A stretch of DNA of 64,000 nt, from the NCBI GenBank assembly GCA_965205865.1, contig CBDBHR010000030.1, positions 704,001-768,000 on the forward strand, given 5' to 3'. The notes below the pieces were generated by a model. That model was not told the origin of the DNA. It did no database searches and saw only the letters and a list, made by a program, of their open reading frames with translations. The translations under genes and the position numbers were made by a program. Below are positions 6,618 through 61,843 of this stretch, in pieces; within the stretch, counting starts at the first letter, position 1, and each line of letters starts with the position of its first letter. Origin of the DNA: a bacterium (lineage in GTDB: Bacteria > SAR324 > NAC60-12).

Positions 6618-8420
6618 CTAATGACCCATTGCTGCCTTCAGCTCACTATCAATCCAGAGGCGGGACCATATGACAGGAGCACGGTTCATGTGTCCGAGCT
6701 CGATTTCCCCGTTAAAACCTATGACCCACGGCTGGTACACTTCGAACCATGGTTGGACAGGACCCCATACGTACCAGTGCTGCTCTACCGCATACATATC
6801 TGCCTCTTTGACCAACCTCTGCTGCTCCTCCATGGTGGTAGCGGCTGCGACGGCTTCAGCCAGGGCATCATAAGTCGGGTCACTGACTCCCGAGCGGTTA
6901 AACTTAGAAAGGGTCGAGTGAAGCTCGGAGGTCATCCAAGAGGAAGGGAGATATTTGACCGACGTGACTGCCGTCGTCATACCTTGCTCCAGAGCCTTGA
7001 CACGAGCAGTCCACGCCGGAATGTTCGCCAGCGGCGTGAGTTGAACCTGTACGTCAACGCCAATCTTTTTCCAGTAGTCGGCGACTGCCGGATGCCATCG
7101 TGCAAAATTCCAGGAATCCACGGAATCCACGTTGGTCCTAAATCGAATGCCGTCGACGCCCCTCGTATACCCTGCCTCGTCAAGGAGCTTCTCAGCCCCT
7201 TCCGGGTCATAGGTATAGTATCCCTTGATCTCTTCGGGCCACTCTTCAAATGGGGTGCTCCATGCCGTTTGCTTCTTGTGTATCATCCCTTGAGGTGTCG
7301 GGTCGGGGGCATAAGCCTTCCAGAAGCTAGTGCTCAGTGTCTCGAGGTCCAGCGCCATCTGCATTGCCCGGCGCACCCTGATGTCGTCAAAGGGCGGCTT
7401 GGTCACGTTAAGGGCATAGCCATGATCCGACCGGAAGGAATACGTATAAACCACGATTTCGGGGTTGGTCTTCCGGAGGCTCTCTACATCTTCGAGATTG
7501 GGGGGGGCACTCACGCCTTGACCAAGGTAAGCAACCTGACCTGTGCGCATTGCCGCCAGACGCGTTGCCGAGTCCGTCATGACCAGTCTCTCTACCTTGT
7601 CAATATAGGGCAAGCGGTTCTCCGGGTATTTTTCGTCGTAGCCCCAGTAGTTGGGGTTCTTGCTAAAGGTCAGAGAGCTGCCGTCGACCAAGTCAGCTAT
7701 CATCCAGGGCCCGGTGCCGACCAGGTTCCTCCAATCGTTAGCGTCCCCGTGTTCCTCGATTACCTCGGGGGGGTATATAAACGTGAGGGGATCGTCGATG
7801 AGGATCGCCAGCGCAGCCAGGGATGGCTCCTTTAGCTTCATAACAACCGTATATTTGTCGGTGGCCGTTACCGATTCGAATGGCACATTTTGTAAATTGA
7901 TCCGGAACTCGGAAGGTTCGGTATAGCCGCTGCCCAGACCCGTCATGCGGTGAAAGTTATATTCTACGTCCTTGGCGGTCAATTCCCTCCCATTCATCGG
8001 TGCCTTGTCGTGCCAGTAGACGCCCTTGCGGATGTGGAAGATATAAGTCAGGGGGTCGGGTTGCTCCCAGCTTTCCGCCAGCGCCCCCGTTTGGAAAGAC
8101 TCAGGTGTGAACGCGGTTCTAAAGTCCCATACGTCCCTGTCTAGTCCCCAGTCCCCCATGCCCAGCTTCTCTAAAACGCCAGCGGTGTAGACCGACACCA
8201 CAAAATGCGCGACGTGGTGGTCTATACCCGGGGGCTCCCAGCCCTGAGCTACCGTGAGCACCCCGCCATACTCAGGCGCGGTCACCATCTCACCGGTGGT
8301 GGGGTCTTTGACCATCTTTTTCTCAGCCGCGACGGCTGAACTGACCCAGAGCATGGTCACGCTCAGGATGAAGGCCAGCAGGATTGCACTGAAGGTTGAT
8401 TTGCTTTTTTGATTATCCAT
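6618..8420 (-). CDS. ABC transporter substrate-binding protein, family 5
   Basis: Signal peptide after MDNQKSK; KDPTTGEMVTAPEYGG, GALAESWE, VGTGPW, PPFDDIRVRRAM. Frame is open to 8696; alternative start at 8531. Confidence 0.93.
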   Translation of the reverse strand: MDNQKSKSTFSAILLAFILSVTMLWVSSAVAAEKKMVKDPTTGEMVTAPEYGGVLTVAQGWEPPGIDHHVAHFVVSVYTAGVLEKLGMGDWGLDRDVWDFRTAFTPESFQTGALAESWEQPDPLTYIFHIRKGVYWHDKAPMNGRELTAKDVEYNFHRMTGLGSGYTEPSEFRINLQNVPFESVTATDKYTVVMKLKEPSLAALAILIDDPLTFIYPPEVIEEHGDANDWRNLVGTGPWMIADLVDGSSLTFSKNPNYWGYDEKYPENRLPYIDKVERLVMTDSATRLAAMRTGQVAYLGQGVSAPPNLEDVESLRKTNPEIVVYTYSFRSDHGYALNVTKPPFDDIRVRRAMQMALDLETLSTSFWKAYAPDPTPQGMIHKKQTAWSTPFEEWPEEIKGYYTYDPEGAEKLLDEAGYTRGVDGIRFRTNVDSVDSWNFARWHPAVADYWKKIGVDVQVQLTPLANIPAWTARVKALEQGMTTAVTSVKYLPSSWMTSELHSTLSKFNRSGVSDPTYDALAEAVAAATTMEEQQRLVKEADMYAVEQHWYVWGPVQPWFEVYQPWVIGFNGEIELGHMNRAPVIWSRLWIDSELKAAMGH

Positions 8421-8434
8421 CTTTTTCCTTTCTT

Positions 8435-8612
8435 TTTTTTGATTAAAAACAAGATTTAGGATTGATTTAAAACCTGCTTTCGCTCCCGAAAGCACGTTCT
8501 CGACGTTTTCTCTACTTTTTTGACGGTTCATGGTGCTCCTTTCTGCTTTTTGATTAAAAACAAGATTGCGGGTTGCTTTAAAACCTGCTTTCGTTCTCGA
8601 CGTTTTCTCTAC
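8435..8612 (-). repeat. Imperfect tandem duplication (111-nt period) upstream of and in frame with the SBP gene
   Basis: tttttgattaaaaacaagatt...ttaaaacctgctttcg..cgttctcgacgttttctctac present twice. Confidence 0.85.
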
Positions 8613-8879
8613 ACATTGGGTCTCCTTCATTTTGGAGTGATCAAAAAACCGATTCATTGGCTCCAGGATGGGGCAATGAACCAGAAACCGACGCACTCAG
8701 GCGCCGATGATTTTCCAAATTCCCCATTGCCGTTCCGTTCCTGGAACGGGGAACGAGGGATCTTAAGGATCTCTCCCTGATGTCGAGATAATACAAGGGA
8801 GTAGAACTTGGGATTGGGGACTTGAGACTTGTTGCTTGAAACTTATTACTAGGAACTGGGAACTGGGAACTGGTTTTTA

Positions 8880-8908
8880 AGTATACTTCATAGCCACCTC
8901 ATTGTCAA
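8880..8908 (-). promoter_or_regulatory. Sigma70-type promoter for the SBP-dppB-dppC operon
   Basis: TTGACA-N17-TATACT on the minus strand. Confidence 0.75.
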
Positions 8909-9164
8909 TATTTTTTATACTTGAAACAGGTTAATTTCAGACTTTCATGCCATCCTGACGGTCCGCCGATGTGGCAAATCGAAGGATCGCCTTATTGCTT
9001 TTCCGTCCTATCTCAGGGCATAAAGTTAATAAATTTCTTGCCAATCTCTAACGGTATTTTAACGAAATGCGGTGAAAATCTTGCTCAAATGTAACAAAAT
9101 CTGACAGCTTTCAGTGACAGAATAAAGGGATTAAAATGGTAAGTCAAGCATTTCTCAAAAAAAA

Positions 9165-14183: not shown

Positions 14184-14260
14184 GTCATTCCGGGCGAAGA
14201 CCGGGAATCCAAGGGATTTACCCTAGAAATCCCAGATTCCGGATCAAGTCCGGGATGACA
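14184..14260. repeat. REP-like inverted pair (GTCAT family)
   Basis: gtcattccgggcgaagaccgggaatcc ... gattccggatcaagtccgggatgac. Confidence 0.8.
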
Positions 14261-23168: not shown

Positions 23169-23899
23169 AATCCATCTCCATCAATGATCGTTCCAACATC
23201 ATTACCACAAATGGCATTCACAATGGAATTTTCGGTGCCAATGTTGACAACAATAATCGGAAGGTTATTATCTTTACAAAATGCAATAGCCGTCGCATCC
23301 ATGACTTTCAAATTTTTTTCCAGGACTGTCTCATAAGAGAGTTGATGATAGCGCACAGCATCGCTGTGAATTTCCGGATCTTTATCATAAACCCCATCGA
23401 TTTTAGTGGCTTTTATGACGACATCCGCCCCAATTTCAGAGGCTCTCAAGGCAGCAGTCGTATCGGTTGTAAAAAAGGGATTTCCGGTTCCTCCGGCAAA
23501 GATGACAATCCGTCCTTTCTGCAAGTGTCTGTCCGCACGGCGTTTGATGTAAGGTTCGGCGAACGCATGCATTTCAATGGCCGACATCACTCGGGTTTGG
23601 TAACCACGTTGTTCCAGAGCATTTTGCAGACACAGGCCATTGATCACCGTGGCCAGCATTCCCATGTGATCACCTGCCACTCGGTCCATGGCGTACGGTG
23701 AGGACCGGGTGCCGCGAAAAATATTTCCACCACCAACCACGATTCCGATCTCCACTTTCAACTGATAAATAGCAATGATGCTTTCGGCAATACGAGCAAT
23801 GACGTCATAATCAAACACCGTTCCACTCGTGCCTCCAAAGACTTCTCCACTCAGTTTCAATAATATGCGCTTGTATTTTGGTAGCACGCCTTCCTTCAA
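23165..23899 (-). CDS. pyrH: Uridylate kinase
   Basis: LLKLSGE, GGGNIFRG, GTGNPFFTTD. Confidence 0.97.
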   Translation of the reverse strand: MKEGVLPKYKRILLKLSGEVFGGTSGTVFDYDVIARIAESIIAIYQLKVEIGIVVGGGNIFRGTRSSPYAMDRVAGDHMGMLATVINGLCLQNALEQRGYQTRVMSAIEMHAFAEPYIKRRADRHLQKGRIVIFAGGTGNPFFTTDTTAALRASEIGADVVIKATKIDGVYDKDPEIHSDAVRYHQLSYETVLEKNLKVMDATAIAFCKDNNLPIIVVNIGTENSIVNAICGNDVGTIIDGDGL

Positions 23900-24759
23900 A
23901 ATTGGAACTTGACAAAATCGGTTAAGGCGATGCCCACTCCCACGGTCTTGCTGGTTTCGCTGAGCAATCCCTCAATGGTTTGTTCAGGAATTTTCACAAA
24001 AGGTTGGGAAAGTACACAGATTTCTTTTTTGAATTTCCTCATTCTGCCTGCAATCATTTGCTCGATAATATTTTCAGGTCTGCCCGAATCCCGTGCTTGA
24101 GCAACAAATATTTCTTTTTCCTTTTCAAGCACTTCTGCGGGAATTTGATCTTCGCTGATCGCTTCTGCCTGAGAGGCGGCAATATGCATGGAGATGTCTT
24201 TCGCCAAAGGATCCAAAAGCGTGTGTTCAACAGGTTGTTCTGTTTTTAAAGCAACGAGGACTCCGATTTTTCCCGTCATATGGACATATCCTCCCACCAC
24301 TCCAAAATCAACCTGCAAGGCTTTTGCTTCCAAAAATTGTATATTTTCTCCCAGTTCTCCTATAAATCGCATGAGCATGTCTTGCACCGTGCCCTCGAGA
24401 TCTGCCTGCTGCTGAAAAGGTTGGTTCATGAAATCTGCCACTCCATGCGTAATGGCTTGCTCTGCCAATTGGCCCAACAGACTGCGGAATTTTTCATTTT
24501 TTGCCACAAAATCCGTCTCACATGCGATTTTGACCAAGGCTGCCTTCTTTTTGTCGCTGGCAATGGCAATCCCCACACCACCTTCCCGGGTTTCCCGCGA
24601 TGATTTTTTAAGAGCTTTGACTTGGCCTGTTTTACGCAGTAGTTCTTTAGCAGCATCCATATCCCCTTGTGTTTCCACCAGGGCTTTTTTGCACTCCATC
24701 ATCCCGACACCACTGATTTCGCGCAATTCTTTGACCATACTCGCAGTAATTTGTGTCAT
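23896..24759 (-). CDS. tsf: Elongation factor Ts
   Basis: VKELRE..G.GMMECKKAL, CETDFVAKN. Confidence 0.97.
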   Translation of the reverse strand: MTQITASMVKELREISGVGMMECKKALVETQGDMDAAKELLRKTGQVKALKKSSRETREGGVGIAIASDKKKAALVKIACETDFVAKNEKFRSLLGQLAEQAITHGVADFMNQPFQQQADLEGTVQDMLMRFIGELGENIQFLEAKALQVDFGVVGGYVHMTGKIGVLVALKTEQPVEHTLLDPLAKDISMHIAASQAEAISEDQIPAEVLEKEKEIFVAQARDSGRPENIIEQMIAGRMRKFKKEICVLSQPFVKIPEQTIEGLLSETSKTVGVGIALTDFVKFQF

Positions 24760-24804
24760 AGAAATATCTTTTTCTTAGTTTGAATTGTTTAAATTGATGA
24801 TTTT

Positions 24805-25677
24805 TTAGACCCTGTCTTCTTCACGCGGCTCCGAATCGATATTATCAGCTTTGCCGTCCTCATGAGCCTCCTCGGATTCTGGTGACTCCTGATCTTCTTC
24901 CTTAACGGCTACAACCGCTTTCTGCAATTGCTCTTCTGCAATGGATTCTTCCGGTTGCGGCGTCATAGATTCTTGCTGAAGACGTTGGACCCGCTTCACC
25001 TTTCCTTCCTGTACTGCCGTTGCAATGACATTCGCATAGAGCTTTATGGCACGAGGGGCGTCATCGTTACCAGGAATAGGAAAGTCAATACCTTCGGGGT
25101 TGCAATTGGTATCGACAATCGCAATTATGGGAATATCGAGTTTTCGGGCTTCTTTCAGAGCAATATGCTCCTTGATGCAATCCACAATAAAAATAGCGCC
25201 GGGCAATTGTTGCATTTCTTTGACGCCCCCCAAGGATCGTTCGAGTTTCTGGCGTTTTCTCTCAATTTGCAACGCTTCTTTTTTGATCATTCCAGGATAC
25301 GCTCCTTCCGGACCGGCTAACTCTTCATAATTCTTCATGCGGGCAACCGACTTGCGAATTGTTTCAAAATTCGTCAGCAAGCCGCCCAGCCAACGCTCGT
25401 TGATGAAAAAGCTACCACTGCGCTGCGCCTCTTCCCCCAGGATGTCCCGGGCTTGGTCTTTTGTTCCGACAAACAAAATCGATTTTCCCCCTTCTGCCAA
25501 TTGACGGGTGTATTCATAAGCGATTTTGAGTTTGCGAAGCGTCTGTCTCAGGTCGATGATATGAATGCCATGTTTGGCTCCGTAGATATACGGTTCCATC
25601 TTAGGGTTCCAACGGCTGGTTTGATGCCCAAAATGAACACCGGCTTCGATAAATTGTTTTAACGAGACAACTGCCAT
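24805..25677 (-). CDS. rpsB: 30S ribosomal protein S2
   Basis: AGVHFGH, RWLGGLLTN, PGNDDA; acidic tail. Confidence 0.97.
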   Translation of the reverse strand: MAVVSLKQFIEAGVHFGHQTSRWNPKMEPYIYGAKHGIHIIDLRQTLRKLKIAYEYTRQLAEGGKSILFVGTKDQARDILGEEAQRSGSFFINERWLGGLLTNFETIRKSVARMKNYEELAGPEGAYPGMIKKEALQIERKRQKLERSLGGVKEMQQLPGAIFIVDCIKEHIALKEARKLDIPIIAIVDTNCNPEGIDFPIPGNDDAPRAIKLYANVIATAVQEGKVKRVQRLQQESMTPQPEESIAEEQLQKAVVAVKEEDQESPESEEAHEDGKADNIDSEPREEDRV

Positions 25678-26092
25678 ATTTTTATCTCCATGTAAATGGC
25701 GCAAAAAAGGATTCCTTAAGGCAGGAACACTTTATAAGGTTCCACTGCTTCAAAAGGGTGGAAACCAAGAGCGTTTCTTAATGCGCTTAAACGTCGTATA
25801 GTAGGAACTATCAACAAAGAAAATCTTATCTATTTAGAAGATCTGCGTAGTTATTGCAAGCTTTTTCTCGATGTCGGGAATTGTCAGAGTGGGATAGTGA
25901 TGTCTGTGCGTTTGCGCAAAATTAAATTTTTTTTTGTAGAACAGCCGATATCCGACATTTTAAATGAGACTGGGAAACAGTTGCTTGACTTTCTTCTTTC
26001 CACTCTGGATCTATCTGATAATATTGCTATACTGATATCAAAATGGATTCCTCGAGGGAAAAGAATAAATCGATTAAAAAAAGGAAACTGTC

Positions 26093-39381: not shown

Positions 39382-40267
39382 TTAACCCATTTTGAAAGGG
39401 TTGATCAGTCGGGCCAGGGGGCCTCTTTGTTTGATTGTCGCCCCATAGCGGCCTCCTCCACCCCGCAGCCGGGGGTCGAGCAGGTCCCGCATGGCATCGC
39501 CAAACATGTTGAGACTATAGACGACGATTGTCAGGCAAAGTCCCGGCCAGAGCGCCATCCGGGGTGCCATCTCCATGAACTCCCGCCCTTCCCGGCTGAG
39601 CATCCCTCCCCAGCTCGGCACTTTGAGGGGCAGCCCGAATCCGAGGAAGCTCAACGACGCCTCACTGATAATCACCGCCCCGATGTTGATGGAAAAGATG
39701 ATGATGACCGGAGGGACAATATTGGGCAGGACATGGCGCATCAGGATTCTCCCTTTCGAGCAGCCAATCGCCAAGGCGGCCTCAAAATAGACATTCTCTT
39801 TGATGCCAATCACGGCGCCCCGGACCACTCGGGAGCTGCCGATGCCGCCGGCGATCCCCAGGACCACGATGATCTGAGGGAGACCCCGTCCGGCGATGGA
39901 CATGATGGTCAACAACAAAAGCAGCCCCGGGAAGGCCATCCAGGCATCGACAAAGCGCTGCACCGCCAGATCCACTTTTCCTCCCAGGAATCCGGAAATG
40001 CTGCCGATCAGGATGGCGAGGAGCACATTGAGCGCGGTTGCGGCCAGACCGACCGTTAAGGAAATTTGAGCCCCGTAGAGCAGGCGGCTGAGGAGGTCTC
40101 GTCCCAACTGGTCGGTCCCCAGGAGATACTTGTCGGATGGCTCCTGCATCCGGTCAAAGATGCTGACTTTATCATAGGGAAGCGGCGCCAGCACATCGGC
40201 AAAGACCGCCAAAAAAATAAAGATCAAGACAATGATCCCGCCGAACGTCCCCAGCGGTTTCTCTTTA
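39382..40267 (-). pseudogene. DppC-like permease lacking its 5' end
   Basis: Paralogue of 4317..5285 from KEKPLG onward; native start deleted. Confidence 0.8.
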
Positions 40268-40295
40268 ATAACCGCCTGATGATATAGATTCTCAT
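40266..40295 (-). pseudogene. First 10 codons of a dppB-like gene fused out of frame to dppC
   Basis: GAGG SD then MRIYIIRRLL. Confidence 0.7.
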
Positions 40296-40780: not shown

Positions 40781-40970
40781 AGTCCCGGAGGGACGAAAGG
40801 AAATAGCCCAGCCATTTATGACTGGGGATAGATTTTGATGGTGGATCCAGTCCTGGAGGGACGACACTGAAAGCGCACTGAAGAAAAAGTGTCGTCCCTC
40901 TGGGACTAAAAAGGTTTTGTGGCATGACCCAGCCATAAATGGCTGGGCTATGCTCTGTCACCCTTCCAGG
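40781..40970. repeat. REP-like cluster (GTCCC family), BIME-like inverted arrangement
   Basis: agtcccggagggacga, cccagccatttatgactggg, gtcgtccctctgggact, cccagccataaatggctggg. Confidence 0.8.
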
Positions 40971-41112
40971 GTTTTCTCACCTTCACCTGTGTGAGATCGA
41001 GTTGATCAAATTGCACTTTTTCCTTTGATGAAAATGATGTCTGGTCTTATTACTCAGAAACGACGGGTAGCGTCATATTTTGTTGGTATTCCTGAAAAAC
41101 GTTGTCCCTGTG

Positions 41113-41928
41113 ATAGGAGTCAGGAAGGCATTAGCCTCCCTGCCCTCCGAACCGTGCGTGCGGTTCTCCCGCACACGGCTCTCCAGTCGTTGGTTTCCTC
41201 ATCGGGATTGGCTCGCTACCCATCGGGCTTCTTTCATGGTGAAAAGTCCGAGTTGCGCAAAGAAGAGATCTCCTTTGACTCCGTTACCCAGAGCCGCCAA
41301 CATACGTTCGATCCATATCGTTGTTTCCACCCAACTCCAATGAGGAGAGGCTTCTGTTTCCAGGTTAGTCATCTCCGACACTTTGGAAACTCCTTTCTCT
41401 TGAGGATCAACTTGATGAACTTCTCGTATCCAACTTCCTACCCCGCTTCCCTCTTCGGGATTTTGCTTCTCCCGCCTTTCATGAAGCCTGCCTGTCAATT
41501 CAGGTTCGTGTTTGTTTTCCCTGTTAGCCATCTGCTTTCCCGATGGTGTCACAATATCCTCACCTTGTTGAAAGACACAACTCCATTACGGTACTATCAG
41601 GGTTCTGACTCCTCTACCTCTCACCAAAGGCAGAGGTCTCCCTGCTTCTCTCGCTTAACCTTCCTGATGTTCCGTCCCCAACCACGTTATGCGCCTGACC
41701 CTCGTTTTATCCACCACCGCAACGGGATCAGTGAGTTTCAGACTTCGCCACGAATGAGCAAGCTCGTCGCTAACATGCCGCCGAATCGGGTTCGTTCTCC
41801 TACGGACCACCATTTCGCCTCCGGTTGCTCCCCACCCCGCCTCATGGCGACGCAGTTACCTTCGGCTACAGCTGGTTTACCATGGCACGGACTTCCACCG
41901 CGCTGATTAAGCGCCTTCCCAGGCGCAC
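41113..41928 (-). mobile_element. Full-length group II intron ribozyme with internally deleted ORF
   Basis: 5' GTGCG; D5 gagagccgtgtgcgggagaaccgcacgcacggttcgga; D6 ending CCTAT; residual ORF joins WSWVETTIWIERMLAALGNGVKG directly to FFAQLGLFTM. Confidence 0.9.
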
Positions 41929-42016
41929 TCATCCTCGCGAAAGCGGGGATCCAGAGGGCTGGAGCTTAAAACCCTGGAACGCCAGCCCGGTGGATTCCCG
42001 CATGCTCGGGAATGAC
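41929..42016. repeat. REP-like inverted pair (GTCAT family), target of the intron
   Basis: tcatcctcgcgaaagcggggatcc ... ggattcccgcatgctcgggaatgac. Confidence 0.8.
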
Positions 42017-42209
42017 AATTTAGACAAGTTTCAAAAAACACGTTGAGCCTAGTGTTTTTCAGCTTTGGTCAGCATTACCCGTCGTTTCTGATTTATTAAG
42101 CTGTCAAGAGCGACTTGAGGTTTGAAATAAAACCTTCAGCCAAAGGCGATTTCATTGAGAACTATCAAAAAAGGAAACGAAAGACAAGCAGAAATTCTTT
42201 AACCCTCTT

Positions 42210-42993: not shown

Positions 42994-43162
42994 GATTGAT
43001 TGGAGCTGACTCTGACGAGATAATATTAACCTCGGGGGCAACCGAGTCCAACAAACTCGCTTTATTGGGAGTAGCCAAGCGTGCCTTGCCTAACTCGTGG
43101 CGTTCGCTAACCTAGCATTGAGATGGAAACATTTTATCCTTCACCATTGCATGATAAATTGT

Positions 43163-44257
43163 ATGACTTCTGCTGATAAAATCACTGTTGGGTTGTTATG
43201 CGGTGGCCGCAGCGGAGAGCACAAAGTTTCTCTGATCTCAGCCTTGAACATTCAAAAAGCACTTGATCCCGACAAATATAACGTTGCAGTTATCGGTATC
43301 GAACGATCAGGAAATTGGTATTTGAGTTGGGACGAAACCTACATTCACCACTCCCAAGACATTCGACATGTCTCATTGAACGTGTCGAAACCGGTTGTAC
43401 TGCCGCTTCTCAATGGAGATTTGATCGAAAAAGAGACTCAAAGAAGTCTTGCAAAAATAGATGTTTATTTCCCAATCACCCATGGTCCATACGGAGAGGA
43501 TGGAACACTGCAAGGATTTTTGCGTTCTTTGCAAGTTCCTTATGTGGGAGCCGATGTGACAGGATCCGCAATCAGCATGGACAAGGATGTCAGCAAGCGT
43601 CTCTTGCGAGACAGTGGAATGCCTGTTACTCCCTTTATCACCGTCAAAGAGCCTCATGCAATCTCGTTTGAAGAAGCATCAATGCAATTGGGAACTCCCT
43701 TATTTGCCAAACCCTGCCGCCTGGGTTCTTCTTTGGGAGTTTCTAAAATTTCCAATCCTGCCGATTTTGAGCAGGCAACCAACAAAGCATTTCAGTACGA
43801 TCGAAAAATCTTGATAGAGCAAGCAGTGGAGGGAAGAGAAATCGAATGCGCTGTTTTGGGAAATACTGATCCTAAGGCCTCGGAGGTATTAGGAGAAATC
43901 GTTCCCAGGGACGAGTTTTATTCTTATCAAGCAAAATATGTTCAAGAGGACGGAGCGAAATTGTTCGTTCCTGCCCAACTGCCTGCCGATGTCACTGAAA
44001 ATGTACGCCTGGCAGCAATTGCAGTTTACACCATCTTGGAATGTGAAGGGATGGCACGGATTGACTTCTTTGTGAAGGACGATGGTTCTTTTATCATCAA
44101 TGAAGCAAACACTCTCCCTGGATTTACCAATATCAGTATGTATCCCAAATTATGGGAAGCCTCGGGGCTCTCACAAAGGCAGTTACTGGACCGCTTGATT
44201 AAATTGGCCCTTGAGCGTTTTCAAAGAGAAAAAAAGCTGCTCATTTCTGAAAAGTAG
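43163..44257 (+). CDS. ddl: D-alanine--D-alanine ligase
   Basis: GGRSGEHKVSL, HGPYGEDGTLQG, GSSLGV, NEANTLPGFT. Confidence 0.97.
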   Translation: MTSADKITVGLLCGGRSGEHKVSLISALNIQKALDPDKYNVAVIGIERSGNWYLSWDETYIHHSQDIRHVSLNVSKPVVLPLLNGDLIEKETQRSLAKIDVYFPITHGPYGEDGTLQGFLRSLQVPYVGADVTGSAISMDKDVSKRLLRDSGMPVTPFITVKEPHAISFEEASMQLGTPLFAKPCRLGSSLGVSKISNPADFEQATNKAFQYDRKILIEQAVEGREIECAVLGNTDPKASEVLGEIVPRDEFYSYQAKYVQEDGAKLFVPAQLPADVTENVRLAAIAVYTILECEGMARIDFFVKDDGSFIINEANTLPGFTNISMYPKLWEASGLSQRQLLDRLIKLALERFQREKKLLISEK

Positions 44258-44259
44258 AG

Positions 44260-44739
44260 ATGATGAGATTGTTAACTTCTCCTCATTTAAACGTGGTTTT
44301 GGTTGAACCTCAAATTCCTCCGAATACAGGCAATATTGCCCGGCTTTGCGCGGCAACGCAATGTCATCTCATTTTATTGGGAGAACTGGGCTTTGAACTT
44401 TCAGATCGATATCTCAAACGAGCAGGGCTTGATTACTGGGAATTTGTCAGTTGGGAGCATCAACTCGATGCCGAATCATTTTTTAACTCGTTCCCTGCCG
44501 AACGCTTTCACTTTCTGACAGTCCATTCCAATCGCCCTTACACTAAATGTATTCCCCAAAAAAGTGACTATTATTTTTTTGGAAAAGAAACATCCGGACT
44601 TCCCAAAAAATGGCTTTCACAATATGAGGATCGTTGCTATACCATCCCCATGTGGAATTCTCAAATACGTAGCCTGAATTTGTCCTCCGCAGCTGCCATT
44701 GTGATTTATGATGCCCTTCACCGCATCCTTCATTTCTAA
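44260..44739 (+). CDS. trmL: tRNA (cytidine34-2'-O)-methyltransferase
   Basis: EPQIPPNTGNIAR, RAGLDYW, FGKET, RSLNLS. Confidence 0.96.
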   Translation: MMRLLTSPHLNVVLVEPQIPPNTGNIARLCAATQCHLILLGELGFELSDRYLKRAGLDYWEFVSWEHQLDAESFFNSFPAERFHFLTVHSNRPYTKCIPQKSDYYFFGKETSGLPKKWLSQYEDRCYTIPMWNSQIRSLNLSSAAAIVIYDALHRILHF

Positions 44740-44759
44740 CCCGACTCTAAAATATTTTT

Positions 44760-45383
44760 ATGTTATTGAGTATCAACCCTGTAAGTCCTCAACAACGCTT
44801 GATTGACAGAGCCGTTTCCATTCTGCAGAACGATGGAGTGATTGTCTATCCGACAGATACGGTTTATGGCCTTGGATGCAGTATATTCAGCAAAAAAGCA
44901 ATGGCTCGTATTTGTCAGATAAAAAATAGAGATCCAAAAAAACCTATGAGCTTCATCTGTAGCAGCGAAAGTCAAATTCAAGAATACACTCAAGGGATCC
45001 CAACTCCTATTTTTAAAATCATACGCCGGTATCTGCCAGGCCCTTACACTTTTATTTTCAATGCATCCAAGGTAGTTCCACAAATGATGCTTACCAGACG
45101 AAAAACCCTAGGATGCCGATGGCCGGATCATTCCATTGCAATCAAACTTGTCGAAACATTGGGAAATCCTATCTTGAGCACCAGTTTACTCACTTCCGAA
45201 GAAACACTATACGACGATGCTGTCTATTTGCATGAAGAATACAAAAAACTTGTTGATTTGGTTATCGACGGCGGGACTATTTTTGCTGAATATTCAACTA
45301 TTGTCGATTTCACGATTTCTCCCCCCGCAGTGGTTCGGCAAGGAAAAGGGGAGACGAATTGGATAGAGAAAATTTTTGTATGA
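44760..45383 (+). CDS. Sua5/YciO/YrdC family threonylcarbamoyl-AMP synthase-like protein
   Basis: YPTDTVYGLGC, LPGPYTFI, STS, STIVD. Confidence 0.92.
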   Translation: MLLSINPVSPQQRLIDRAVSILQNDGVIVYPTDTVYGLGCSIFSKKAMARICQIKNRDPKKPMSFICSSESQIQEYTQGIPTPIFKIIRRYLPGPYTFIFNASKVVPQMMLTRRKTLGCRWPDHSIAIKLVETLGNPILSTSLLTSEETLYDDAVYLHEEYKKLVDLVIDGGTIFAEYSTIVDFTISPPAVVRQGKGETNWIEKIFV

Positions 45384-61767: not shown

Positions 61768-61843
61768 GTCATCCTCGCGAAAGCGGGGATCCGGATTTCA
61801 GTCTGGTTGCATACCTCCGGATTCCTGCTTTCGCAAGAATGAC
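61768..61843. repeat. REP-like inverted pair (GTCAT family)
   Basis: gtcatcctcgcgaaagcggggatccgg ... ccggattcctgctttcgcaagaatgac. Confidence 0.8.

Follow-up and report, generated by a model that had tools for sequence, protein, structure and literature searches.

The window analysed here comprises 64,000 nt of a SAR324 bacterium (GenBank assembly GCA_965205865.1, contig CBDBHR010000030.1), and between its called open reading frames (ORFs) lies a group II intron that has lost its reverse transcriptase (RT) gene and sits directly behind a short hairpin of the repetitive extragenic palindromic (REP) type. Coordinates are those of the window unless a contig is named. We refer to the genome as G000 and to its contigs as C3 to C30 (the window being C30:704001-768000), to a sister species of the same genus as G001, and to members of related genera as G007 and G017. 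Feature positions are collected in Table 1.

Intron boundaries and ribozyme anatomy

A reading made from the letters alone (the sequence-only reading) had proposed an 816-nt intron with a GTGCG start, domains V and VI and a CCTAT end, and all of this is borne out: the Rfam model RF00029 matches domains V and VI at 41183..41113 (minus strand) with 50.9 bits against a gathering score of 40, and contigs from public sequencing runs, described below, confirm the boundaries to the base. The ends agree with those of group II introns (5′ GUGYG, 3′ AY and a bulged A in domain VI), here GTGCG, TAT and the A at 41120. Without its ORF the ribozyme measures about 462 nt. We aligned domains I to III of 24 lineages, namely the window copy and 23 RT-bearing relatives taken from 80 loci of named genomes (for example Desulfosarcina alkanivorans, Rhodoferax, Sulfuricella and Thiocystis), and derived a consensus fold, in which the loop–loop contact α–α′ covaries (GCCAA/UUGGC, GCCAC/GUGGC, GCCAU/AUGGC and ACCAC/GUGGU). 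The window copy retains 130 of the 139 columns of domains I to III that are conserved in at least 22 of the 23 relatives, and all nine deviations are common to every aligned copy, that of G017 included; in domains V and VI it retains 53 of 56 conserved columns, two of the three deviations being a compensatory change from a G–C to an A–U pair in domain VI. Judged by this alignment, the ribozyme of the window copy looks intact.

Domain IV keeps no complete RT/maturase, only the two ends of one. The remnant aligns with the metagenomic RT/maturases P0002 (471 aa) and P0004 (481 aa) over an N-terminus ending in ...GNGVKG and a C-terminal FFAQLGLFTMKEARWVASQSR, the latter part corresponding to the final 21 residues of both proteins; about 355 residues (RT0-7 and X) have been deleted in frame, so that the predicted fusion of N- and C-terminal peptides proved correct. 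Both full-length proteins pass the NCBIfam model TIGR04416 for group II RT/maturases (392 and 398 bits; cut-off 300), and RVT_1 and GIIM are the only Pfam domains precomputed for them, an endonuclease domain being absent; a Pfam search of the 117-aa remnant itself returned nothing significant. The open frame looks incidental, because other copies of the intron lose it, those of G001 through a 2-nt deletion at the junction and an internal TAA, and one copy in the same genome (C23b, see below) through an insertion with stops. We also observed that P0003, a 513-aa metagenomic protein, is a gene-calling chimera in which the remnant peptide is joined to gamma-glutamyltranspeptidase by shifted-frame read-through of domain V; it shows a further ORF-less copy of the lineage, upstream of ggt in a different organism.

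The target hairpin and its repeat family

Removal of the intron brings 41112 (G) next to 41929 (TCATCC...) and yields GTCATCCTCGCGAAAGCGGGGATCC on the plus strand, identical at 25 of 25 positions to 61768-61792, just as the sequence-only reading had claimed; a search for this pattern gave 0 matches in 100 shuffles. The 5′ exon ends in ggatccccgctttcgcgaggatga, a hairpin followed by GA, and the 3′ exon begins with cacagg. At least five hairpins of the family lie in the window, and the expression GGATYC...GGRATGA has 214 matches in the genome, 185 of them with a length of 24-26 nt and 160 with CA immediately downstream; a scan in which stems were checked gave 296 hairpins, compared with 22 in the reversed sequence. 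The family has the character of REPs, being a short imperfect palindrome in many dispersed copies. The proposal of a multicopy REP target family with several targets in the window alone therefore stands, with one amendment: larger dispersed repeats contain many of these hairpins as arms, the occupied one being an arm of such a composite. Three uninterrupted paralogues of this host repeat cross the insertion point (C23:24575-24766, C23:12746-12847 and C28:110471-110662; 79-90% identity). By-eye inspection of the hairpins revealed no attC-type motif.

Exon recognition could be reconstructed in detail. The exon-binding site 1 (EBS1), UCAUUC, is complementary to the last six 5′-exon bases, the intron-binding site 1 (IBS1), which read GGAUGA or GAAUGA in all sister copies. 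Across the 24 lineages, in one fixed register, this pairing comprises six of six pairs in 16 lineages, five in five and four in three, compared with a mean of 3.67 pairs against non-cognate exons, where a full six occurred in 21 of 538 comparisons. A further pairing joins EBS3 to the initial base of the 3′ exon (IBS3) in 24/24 lineages (G:C in 20, U:A in three, G:U in one), and EBS3 is U precisely in those three introns that have a 3′ exon starting with A. Of the EBS1/EBS2 pairing with the REP 5′ exon that had been envisaged, the first half thus holds and covaries, and the second was not found: among all 6-mers of domain I, matched to exon positions −7 to −20 over the 24 lineages, the best column was supported in 5/24, and exon bases −7 to −12 vary among sister sites where domain I is the same. 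A 10-bp EBS2-like match in relative L084 was set aside, being absent from its close relatives.

The place of an EBS2 partner appears to be taken by the hairpin itself. At all 31 distinct sites of RT-bearing relatives (some of them copies within one genome) a hairpin is predicted upstream of the intron, separated from the splice site by 0-7 unpaired bases in 30 and by 15 nt in one, and the last 30 exon bases have a mean fold energy of −10.2 kcal/mol, compared with −5.5 kcal/mol in 310 control windows (Mann-Whitney p = 2.5e-9). Where EBS1 reads GAUUCC, as in relatives from Burkholderiales and Rhodocyclaceae, the intron follows the opposite arm (ending GGAATC) of the same repeat type; related introns thus move between the two arms of a REP-type hairpin when six EBS1 bases are changed. 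In the present genome the hairpins that match belong to a REP-like family ending GGAATGA/CA (the slash marks the splice site), and the intron therefore lands in REPs.

One deletion at several unrelated sites

We searched the genome (91.9% complete, 30 contigs) by BLAST for further copies. In total we count four full-length copies: that of the window, C29:587673-588492 (98.4% identical to it), C23:120929-121742 (C23a; 96.5%) and C23:187328-188242 (C23b), the last split at 694/695 by a duplicate of about 95 nt of its own positions 348-442 (the insert being C23:187451-187545). Their 3′ exons all begin with C. A 5′ fragment (positions 1-236) without its own 3′ end lies at C28:322040-322279, and there are several internal or 3′ fragments; the truncated or rearranged copies are those on C28, C29 (partial), C23 (C23b), C30:114088 and C3. 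Sequence identity among the genome's copies is 96-98%. Each of the five that keep a 5′ end lies directly behind a hairpin ending in GGAATGA or GGATGA; the five stems differ and the flanks are unrelated. Among 41 genomes (G000 and 40 relatives), eight, G000 included, have a match to the intron, and hairpin-adjacent copies occur in three related genera (G001, G017 at three sites and G007 at one). Comparison of insertion sites, which could have contradicted the idea of an intron homing into one REP family, thus revealed the same kind of hairpin throughout, and together with the EBS1 complementarity it supports a non-autonomous lineage with this preference.

The deletion junction, ...GGAGTCAAAGGAG/ATCTCTTCTTTGCG..., is identical in the window copy, the C29 copy, C23a, C23b and the G001 copies, and the sites of these copies differ; C23a and G001 carry small secondary indels in the region, and G017 has a different deletion, in which more of the RT is kept and most of domain V is lost. 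One deletion junction at several unrelated sites indicates that the ORF-less form spread after the RT was lost, and such spread would have required an RT supplied in trans. The same argument from a shared deletion is made for the TeI3 introns in the relevant part of Mohr et al. 2010 (PMC2882425). The intron copies of G000 and G001 are 92-93% identical, compared with about 80% for the neighbouring ddl region (43116-44998), a difference in sequence identity that suggests that the ORF-less intron has spread horizontally or has a far younger common origin. No orthologous empty site was readable in G001, where synteny breaks at the intergenic region.

Copies of one deletion derivative could also have been distributed passively at the DNA level, carried by the host repeat in the manner of a composite resembling a miniature inverted-repeat transposable element, or moved by recombination or gene conversion rather than by reverse splicing. 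The hairpins do belong to larger dispersed repeats, and some copies appear to have been shaped by such processes: the two in G001 (C1:1237728-1238546 and 1243876-1244694, 93% identical) look like a duplication because they have near-identical flanks about 6 kb apart, the full C29 copy is followed in tandem, after about 100 nt, by a partial duplicate of the intron 3′ end (580-816) and its 3′ flank (C29:587335-587571), and the C28 fragment looks recombined. Passive spread nevertheless fits poorly with five 5′ exons that have five hairpin stems and unrelated flanks on both sides, with boundaries that are base-exact and always GA/C with EBS1 and EBS3 pairing, and with the existence of uninterrupted paralogues of the host repeat, and we regard it as very improbable.

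Table 1 Features of the intron, its targets and related elements. Coordinates refer to the window, or to the named contig of G000.
Feature	Position	Strand	Description
ORF-less group II intron, 816 nt	41113..41928	-	GTGCGCC at 41928 (5′) to CCTAT at 41113 (3′); sister copies; exact 816-nt skip in public contigs
α hairpin of domain I	41869..41884	-	AAACCA; alignment of copies
EBS1 UCAUUC, intron 172-177	41752..41757	-	in 11-nt terminal loop of domain I (intron 166-182), hypervariable
Terminal loop with α′	41707..41720	-	GUGGU; covariation and consensus fold
EBS3 G, intron 247	41682	-	pairs with first 3′-exon base (C, window 41112)
Remnant ORF in domain IV, 117 aa (117 codons)	41199..41552	-	RT N-terminus fused to RT C-terminus
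Domain V, 33 nt	41149..41181	-	AGC triad, 2-nt bulge, 5-nt loop GAGAA, 4-bp distal stem
Domain VI	41113..41147	-	bulged A at 41120, 8 nt from 3′ end
Occupied REP-type hairpin	41929..41952	-	GGATCCCCGC TTTC GCGAGGAT GA; final 6 nt (41929-41934) = IBS1
Partner hairpin, same family	41990..42016	+	inverted; unoccupied target
Composite host repeat, ~210 bp	41061..42084	.	split by intron; inverted ends CGACGGGTA...TACCCGTCG; holds both hairpins
Intact 25-nt hairpin repeat	61768..61792	+	empty target
Two more family hairpins	14185..14258	.	14185-14208 (-), 14236-14258 (+)
Full family-B introns	C26:286295-288252, C29:631162-633118, C29:732457-734414, C30:423583-425540		

Other features adjoin the intron-bearing repeat. 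Two matches to the Acido-Lenti-1 RNA motif (RF01687) lie beside it in inverted orientation, at 40781-40826 (-) and 40928-40973 (+), scoring 46.9 and 44.7 bits (gathering score 37), the second within a dispersed repeat of about 100 nt that has eight copies in the genome. The ABC-transporter permease gene next to the intron (39392-40283) has about 40 paralogous matches in G001 at 76-82% nucleotide identity.

Proposed spread by a reverse transcriptase acting in trans

The explanation we prefer, to which we assign a probability of roughly 80%, is that the intron derives by deletion from an endonuclease-less group II lineage, is non-autonomous and has spread among REP hairpins by means of an RT acting in trans. 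One ancestral copy would have lost nearly the whole RT/maturase ORF, and the shortened intron would then have reached new hairpins by reverse splicing and reverse transcription, with the enzyme provided from elsewhere; targets would be chosen as by introns of group IIC (class C), through an upstream DNA hairpin, a 6-bp IBS1–EBS1 pairing and a single IBS3–EBS3 pair (C with G). Mobilisation in trans is what we infer from the shared deletion junction at different sites. The identity of the helper can be put forward only as a conjecture, to which we return below, and the window copy may or may not still be active.

Several observations weigh against this account. A tblastn search of the genome with the remnant peptide recovered the ORF-less copies alone and no parent RT, and when P0002 was compared with the 41 genomes the best full-length match was 41% identical (in G001), those in G000 reaching at most about 39%; the RT-bearing parent that the sequence-only reading had expected was thus sought in the genome and 40 relatives and did not appear. 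A scan of metagenomes with protein P0001 likewise found no locus above 70% identity. The window copy carries a lesion of its own, CAGCCATG to GCTG in the α hairpin, by which the stem is weakened, and a change from C to U that gives a G:U pair in the base of domain VI. Moreover, the ribozyme and the ORF remnant have diverged to a similar degree, by 1.3 versus 1.4% among copies within the genome and by 4.7 versus 7.1% between the C29 copy and G001, and this near-equality gives no clear sign of selection on the ribozyme. Finally, the intron-less junction found in public sequencing runs, considered next, may represent either splicing in vivo or an intron-free allele of close strains, and the contigs fit both.

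Intron-less junctions in public sequencing runs

Eleven public runs contained at least half of the window's sampled words, and we compared four of these (X1, X4, X5 and X12), all available as contigs, from which no strand, ends or expression levels can be read. X4 and X12 are metatranscriptomes from the same study, and each has one contig that joins 41112 to 41929 and so skips exactly 816 nt; these contigs are 365 and 496 nt long, with depths of 17.9 and 16.4, shorter sides of 142 and 223 nt, and 1-2 mismatches per aligned piece. The same joint occurs in X1, a run of unspecified kind, with 25 nt on the shorter side and a depth of 5.64 versus about 5.8 in single-copy flanks. The intron body in X1 has a depth of 25-34, about five times that of the joint, and appears only as a variant without the 4-nt lesion of the window copy. 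X5, probably a DNA run, has a contig that covers the filled 5′ junction (41902-42151) with no mismatch, and shows no joint. A further joint, 41104 to 41929 with eight extra letters, was assigned to a paralogue of the host repeat, and X1 also shows a 252-nt skip. Uncovered parts of the window were given no weight, nor was the lack of an unspliced junction of this locus in X4 and X12. The X1 depths lean slightly towards an intron-free allele, which would imply that the insertion is recent.

These data bear on whether the copies are merely fossils, made when an autonomous parent was present and now immobile and decaying, with the public joint as the ancestral empty allele of other strains. Such an account would explain why no cognate RT was found in the genome and its 40 relatives, and it agrees with the equal divergence of ribozyme and ORF remnant, with the private lesions of the window copy and with the truncated and rearranged copies elsewhere in the genome; the X1 depths, with the joint close to the flanks and the intron body about fivefold and lesion-free, also fit DNA of a strain without the insertion. 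The copies within the genome are, however, 96-98% alike, and the ribozyme keeps nearly all of its conserved positions. Moreover, an empty allele whose flanks have 1-2 mismatches per contig piece would itself indicate a recent insertion, and hence recent mobility of the ORF-less form. We consider a purely fossil status possible though rather unlikely, and continue with the interpretation of a derivative that spread through an RT in trans.

Other introns in the genome

The genome contains other group II introns with complete RTs. A classic IIC intron is present in three copies (C26:~165810-167770, C15:~7060-9015 and C25:~23740-25697) with an RT of 460-461 aa, encoded at C26:165925-167304 in the first of these, and a match to RF02001 of 110.9 bits; its 5′ exon ends in TTGT, and a hairpin lies upstream of at least one copy. 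A second intron, which we call family B, is 1958 nt long and has four full copies (Table 1), with an RT of 473-477 aa, encoded at C26:286714-288144 in the C26 copy, and a match to RF02005 of 158.5 bits. One further intron RT lies at C30:878679.

Family B has also given rise to at least 20 ORF-less copies with one common deletion junction (571/1836), a short copy being, for example, C28:322281-322973. Most family-B copies follow GGGGTCAGGC(T/C), which at the few sites where the flank was read is the end of another palindromic repeat, and in some the sequence is interrupted at 400/401, where about 900 nt have been inserted. At C28:322040-322973 the 5′ fragment of the hairpin-homing intron ends at position 236 (GGGTCAGGC), exactly at the start of an ORF-less family-B intron; this arrangement looks like a former twintron that later recombined, because the DNA 3′ of the family-B intron is the usual host repeat of family B. 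The genome further contains 15 matches to the Y1-transposase family PF01797 (Y1_Tnp), including C30:423155-423481 and C29:722638-745882, and for at least two of these genes (C30:423155-423481 and C29:725125-725451) the 3′ end of a family-B intron is no more than a few hundred bases away.

As a hairpin-homing ORF-less lineage without a close RT stands here beside family B with its cognate RTs, the genome offers a natural system for the study of relaxed RT specificity. Proliferation of stripped-down introns through relaxed specificity is frequently postulated in accounts of how spliceosomal introns arose. A more far-reaching reading can be postulated, in which a lineage outside canonical class C uses hairpin, IBS1 and IBS3 for targeting, a mode hitherto linked with class C, and in which its ORF-less derivative undergoes splicing in vivo and has recently colonised REP hairpins of SAR324-type bacteria in cells that lack a cognate RT. 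We regard this combination as doubtful; if true, it would point to a promiscuous driver RT from an unrelated intron family of the genome or to maturase-independent splicing, and the 92-93% identity of the introns beside about 80% for ddl would add horizontal spread of a non-autonomous intron.

Class membership and comparison with known systems

The closest parallels are the IIC introns (B.h.I1, O.i.I1, GsI-IIC and that of E. rectale), with which the lineage shares a small ribozyme, an RT that lacks an endonuclease in the relatives, a stem-loop a few bases upstream, and exon recognition by IBS1 and IBS3 with no EBS2. In IIC introns a stem-loop in the place of IBS2 serves for targeting together with IBS1 and IBS3, as the relevant passages of Toor et al. 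2006 (PMC1702495) describe; insertion behind a stem-loop applies here to 5/5 genome copies and 31/31 relative sites with no consistent EBS2, and the IBS3–EBS3 pair to every lineage aligned. The differences lie elsewhere. The same passages give IIC introns an IBS1–EBS1 pairing of 3-4 bp and a domain V whose triad is CGC instead of AGC and whose distal stem is shorter by 2 bp (IIC features were also taken from parts of Zimmerly & Semper 2015, PMC4424553), whereas here EBS1–IBS1 extends over 6 bp, reaching into the 3′ arm of the hairpin, and domain V has AGC and a 5-nt loop on a 4-bp distal stem. The hairpins, too, are REP-type repeats without a U-run and not terminators. The triad is AGC in 22 of the 23 RT-bearing relatives and CGC in L088 alone, a gammaproteobacterial metagenome-assembled genome whose intron also has a GTACG 5′ end; both triads therefore occur within the lineage.

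Whether the intron is nonetheless a relic of canonical class C, from a lineage with no distinguishing features, can be assessed from the protein as well. Among solved RTs, P0002 scores best with those of class IIC (212 bits with 7uim and 206 with 6ar1, compared with 154 for T.el4h and 140 for LtrA), and this, the hairpin target, the missing EBS2, an AGGAA at intron 264-268 (matched by motif alone to the AGGAA in the 11-nt bulge of the IIC ε′ region) and RF02001 as the sole Rfam match for domains I to IV all favour such a relic. The similarity of P0002 to solved IIC RTs is, however, intermediate: with the IIC structures the genome's own classic IIC RT scores 290 and 399 bits (the latter with the GsI-IIC RT), P0002 212 and 206, and a non-C control 157 and 132. 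The RF02001 match is weak at 25-35 bits, two relatives (L123 and L132) match none of the Rfam domain I to IV models, and the divergent domain V occurs in all copies here, beside an EBS1 of 6 rather than 3-4 bp. A canonical IIC relic therefore seems unlikely to us.

Resemblance to classes IIE and IIF, as far as their published descriptions allow comparison, extends to the AGC triad, the 5-nt loop GAGAA, α′ in a terminal loop and a ribozyme of about 462 nt; the pertinent text of Nagy et al. 2013 (PMC3753933) gives these classes a 5-nt domain V loop, α′ at the end of a stem-loop and 450-700 nt without the intron-encoded protein (IEP), but it also describes an apparent EBS2–IBS2 pairing, and none was found here. 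Relatives of the lineage occur in Kuenenia, Geobacteraceae and Rhodocyclaceae, groups for which class F or unclassified introns are named in the part of Toro & Martinez-Abarca 2013 (PMC3552965) concerned with them. Going by primary sequence and predicted folds, we file the intron as a member of an endonuclease-less lineage with IIC-type targeting, without placing it in class C or any other class; hairpin-plus-IBS1 targeting may accordingly extend beyond canonical class C.

Both hairpin targeting and ORF-less derivatives moved in trans are already known, and the present intron is a good natural example of them, not a new kind of element. Our literature search, in which few subscription journals were covered, returned nothing on REP-homing ORF-less introns and nothing that combined 'SAR324' with 'group II intron'. 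Less ordinary are a domain V that departs from canonical IIC, the 92-93% identity of copies across species beside about 80% for ddl, and the fact that no close IEP was found; bacterial ORF-less introns are, in the statements of reviews that touch on this (including PMC4424553), almost always accompanied by a related IEP in the same genome. TeI3 of Thermosynechococcus elongatus, as presented in the portions of Mohr et al. that treat it, is the nearest precedent for the deletion, with one ORF deletion that has the same break-points in its copies and leaves N- and C-terminal remnants; it differs in being a chloroplast-like IIB intron with sequence-specific targets and with close IEP-encoding introns in the same genome. 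As for the target, IIC-attC introns and REP-targeting insertion sequences likewise find safe landing sites in a structured DNA motif that recurs. The group II intron of Pseudomonas putida KT2440 was associated with REPs in two of nine copies, according to the relevant passage of Tobes & Pareja 2006 (PMC1525189), whereas in the genome studied here every copy with an intact 5′ end is associated with a hairpin.

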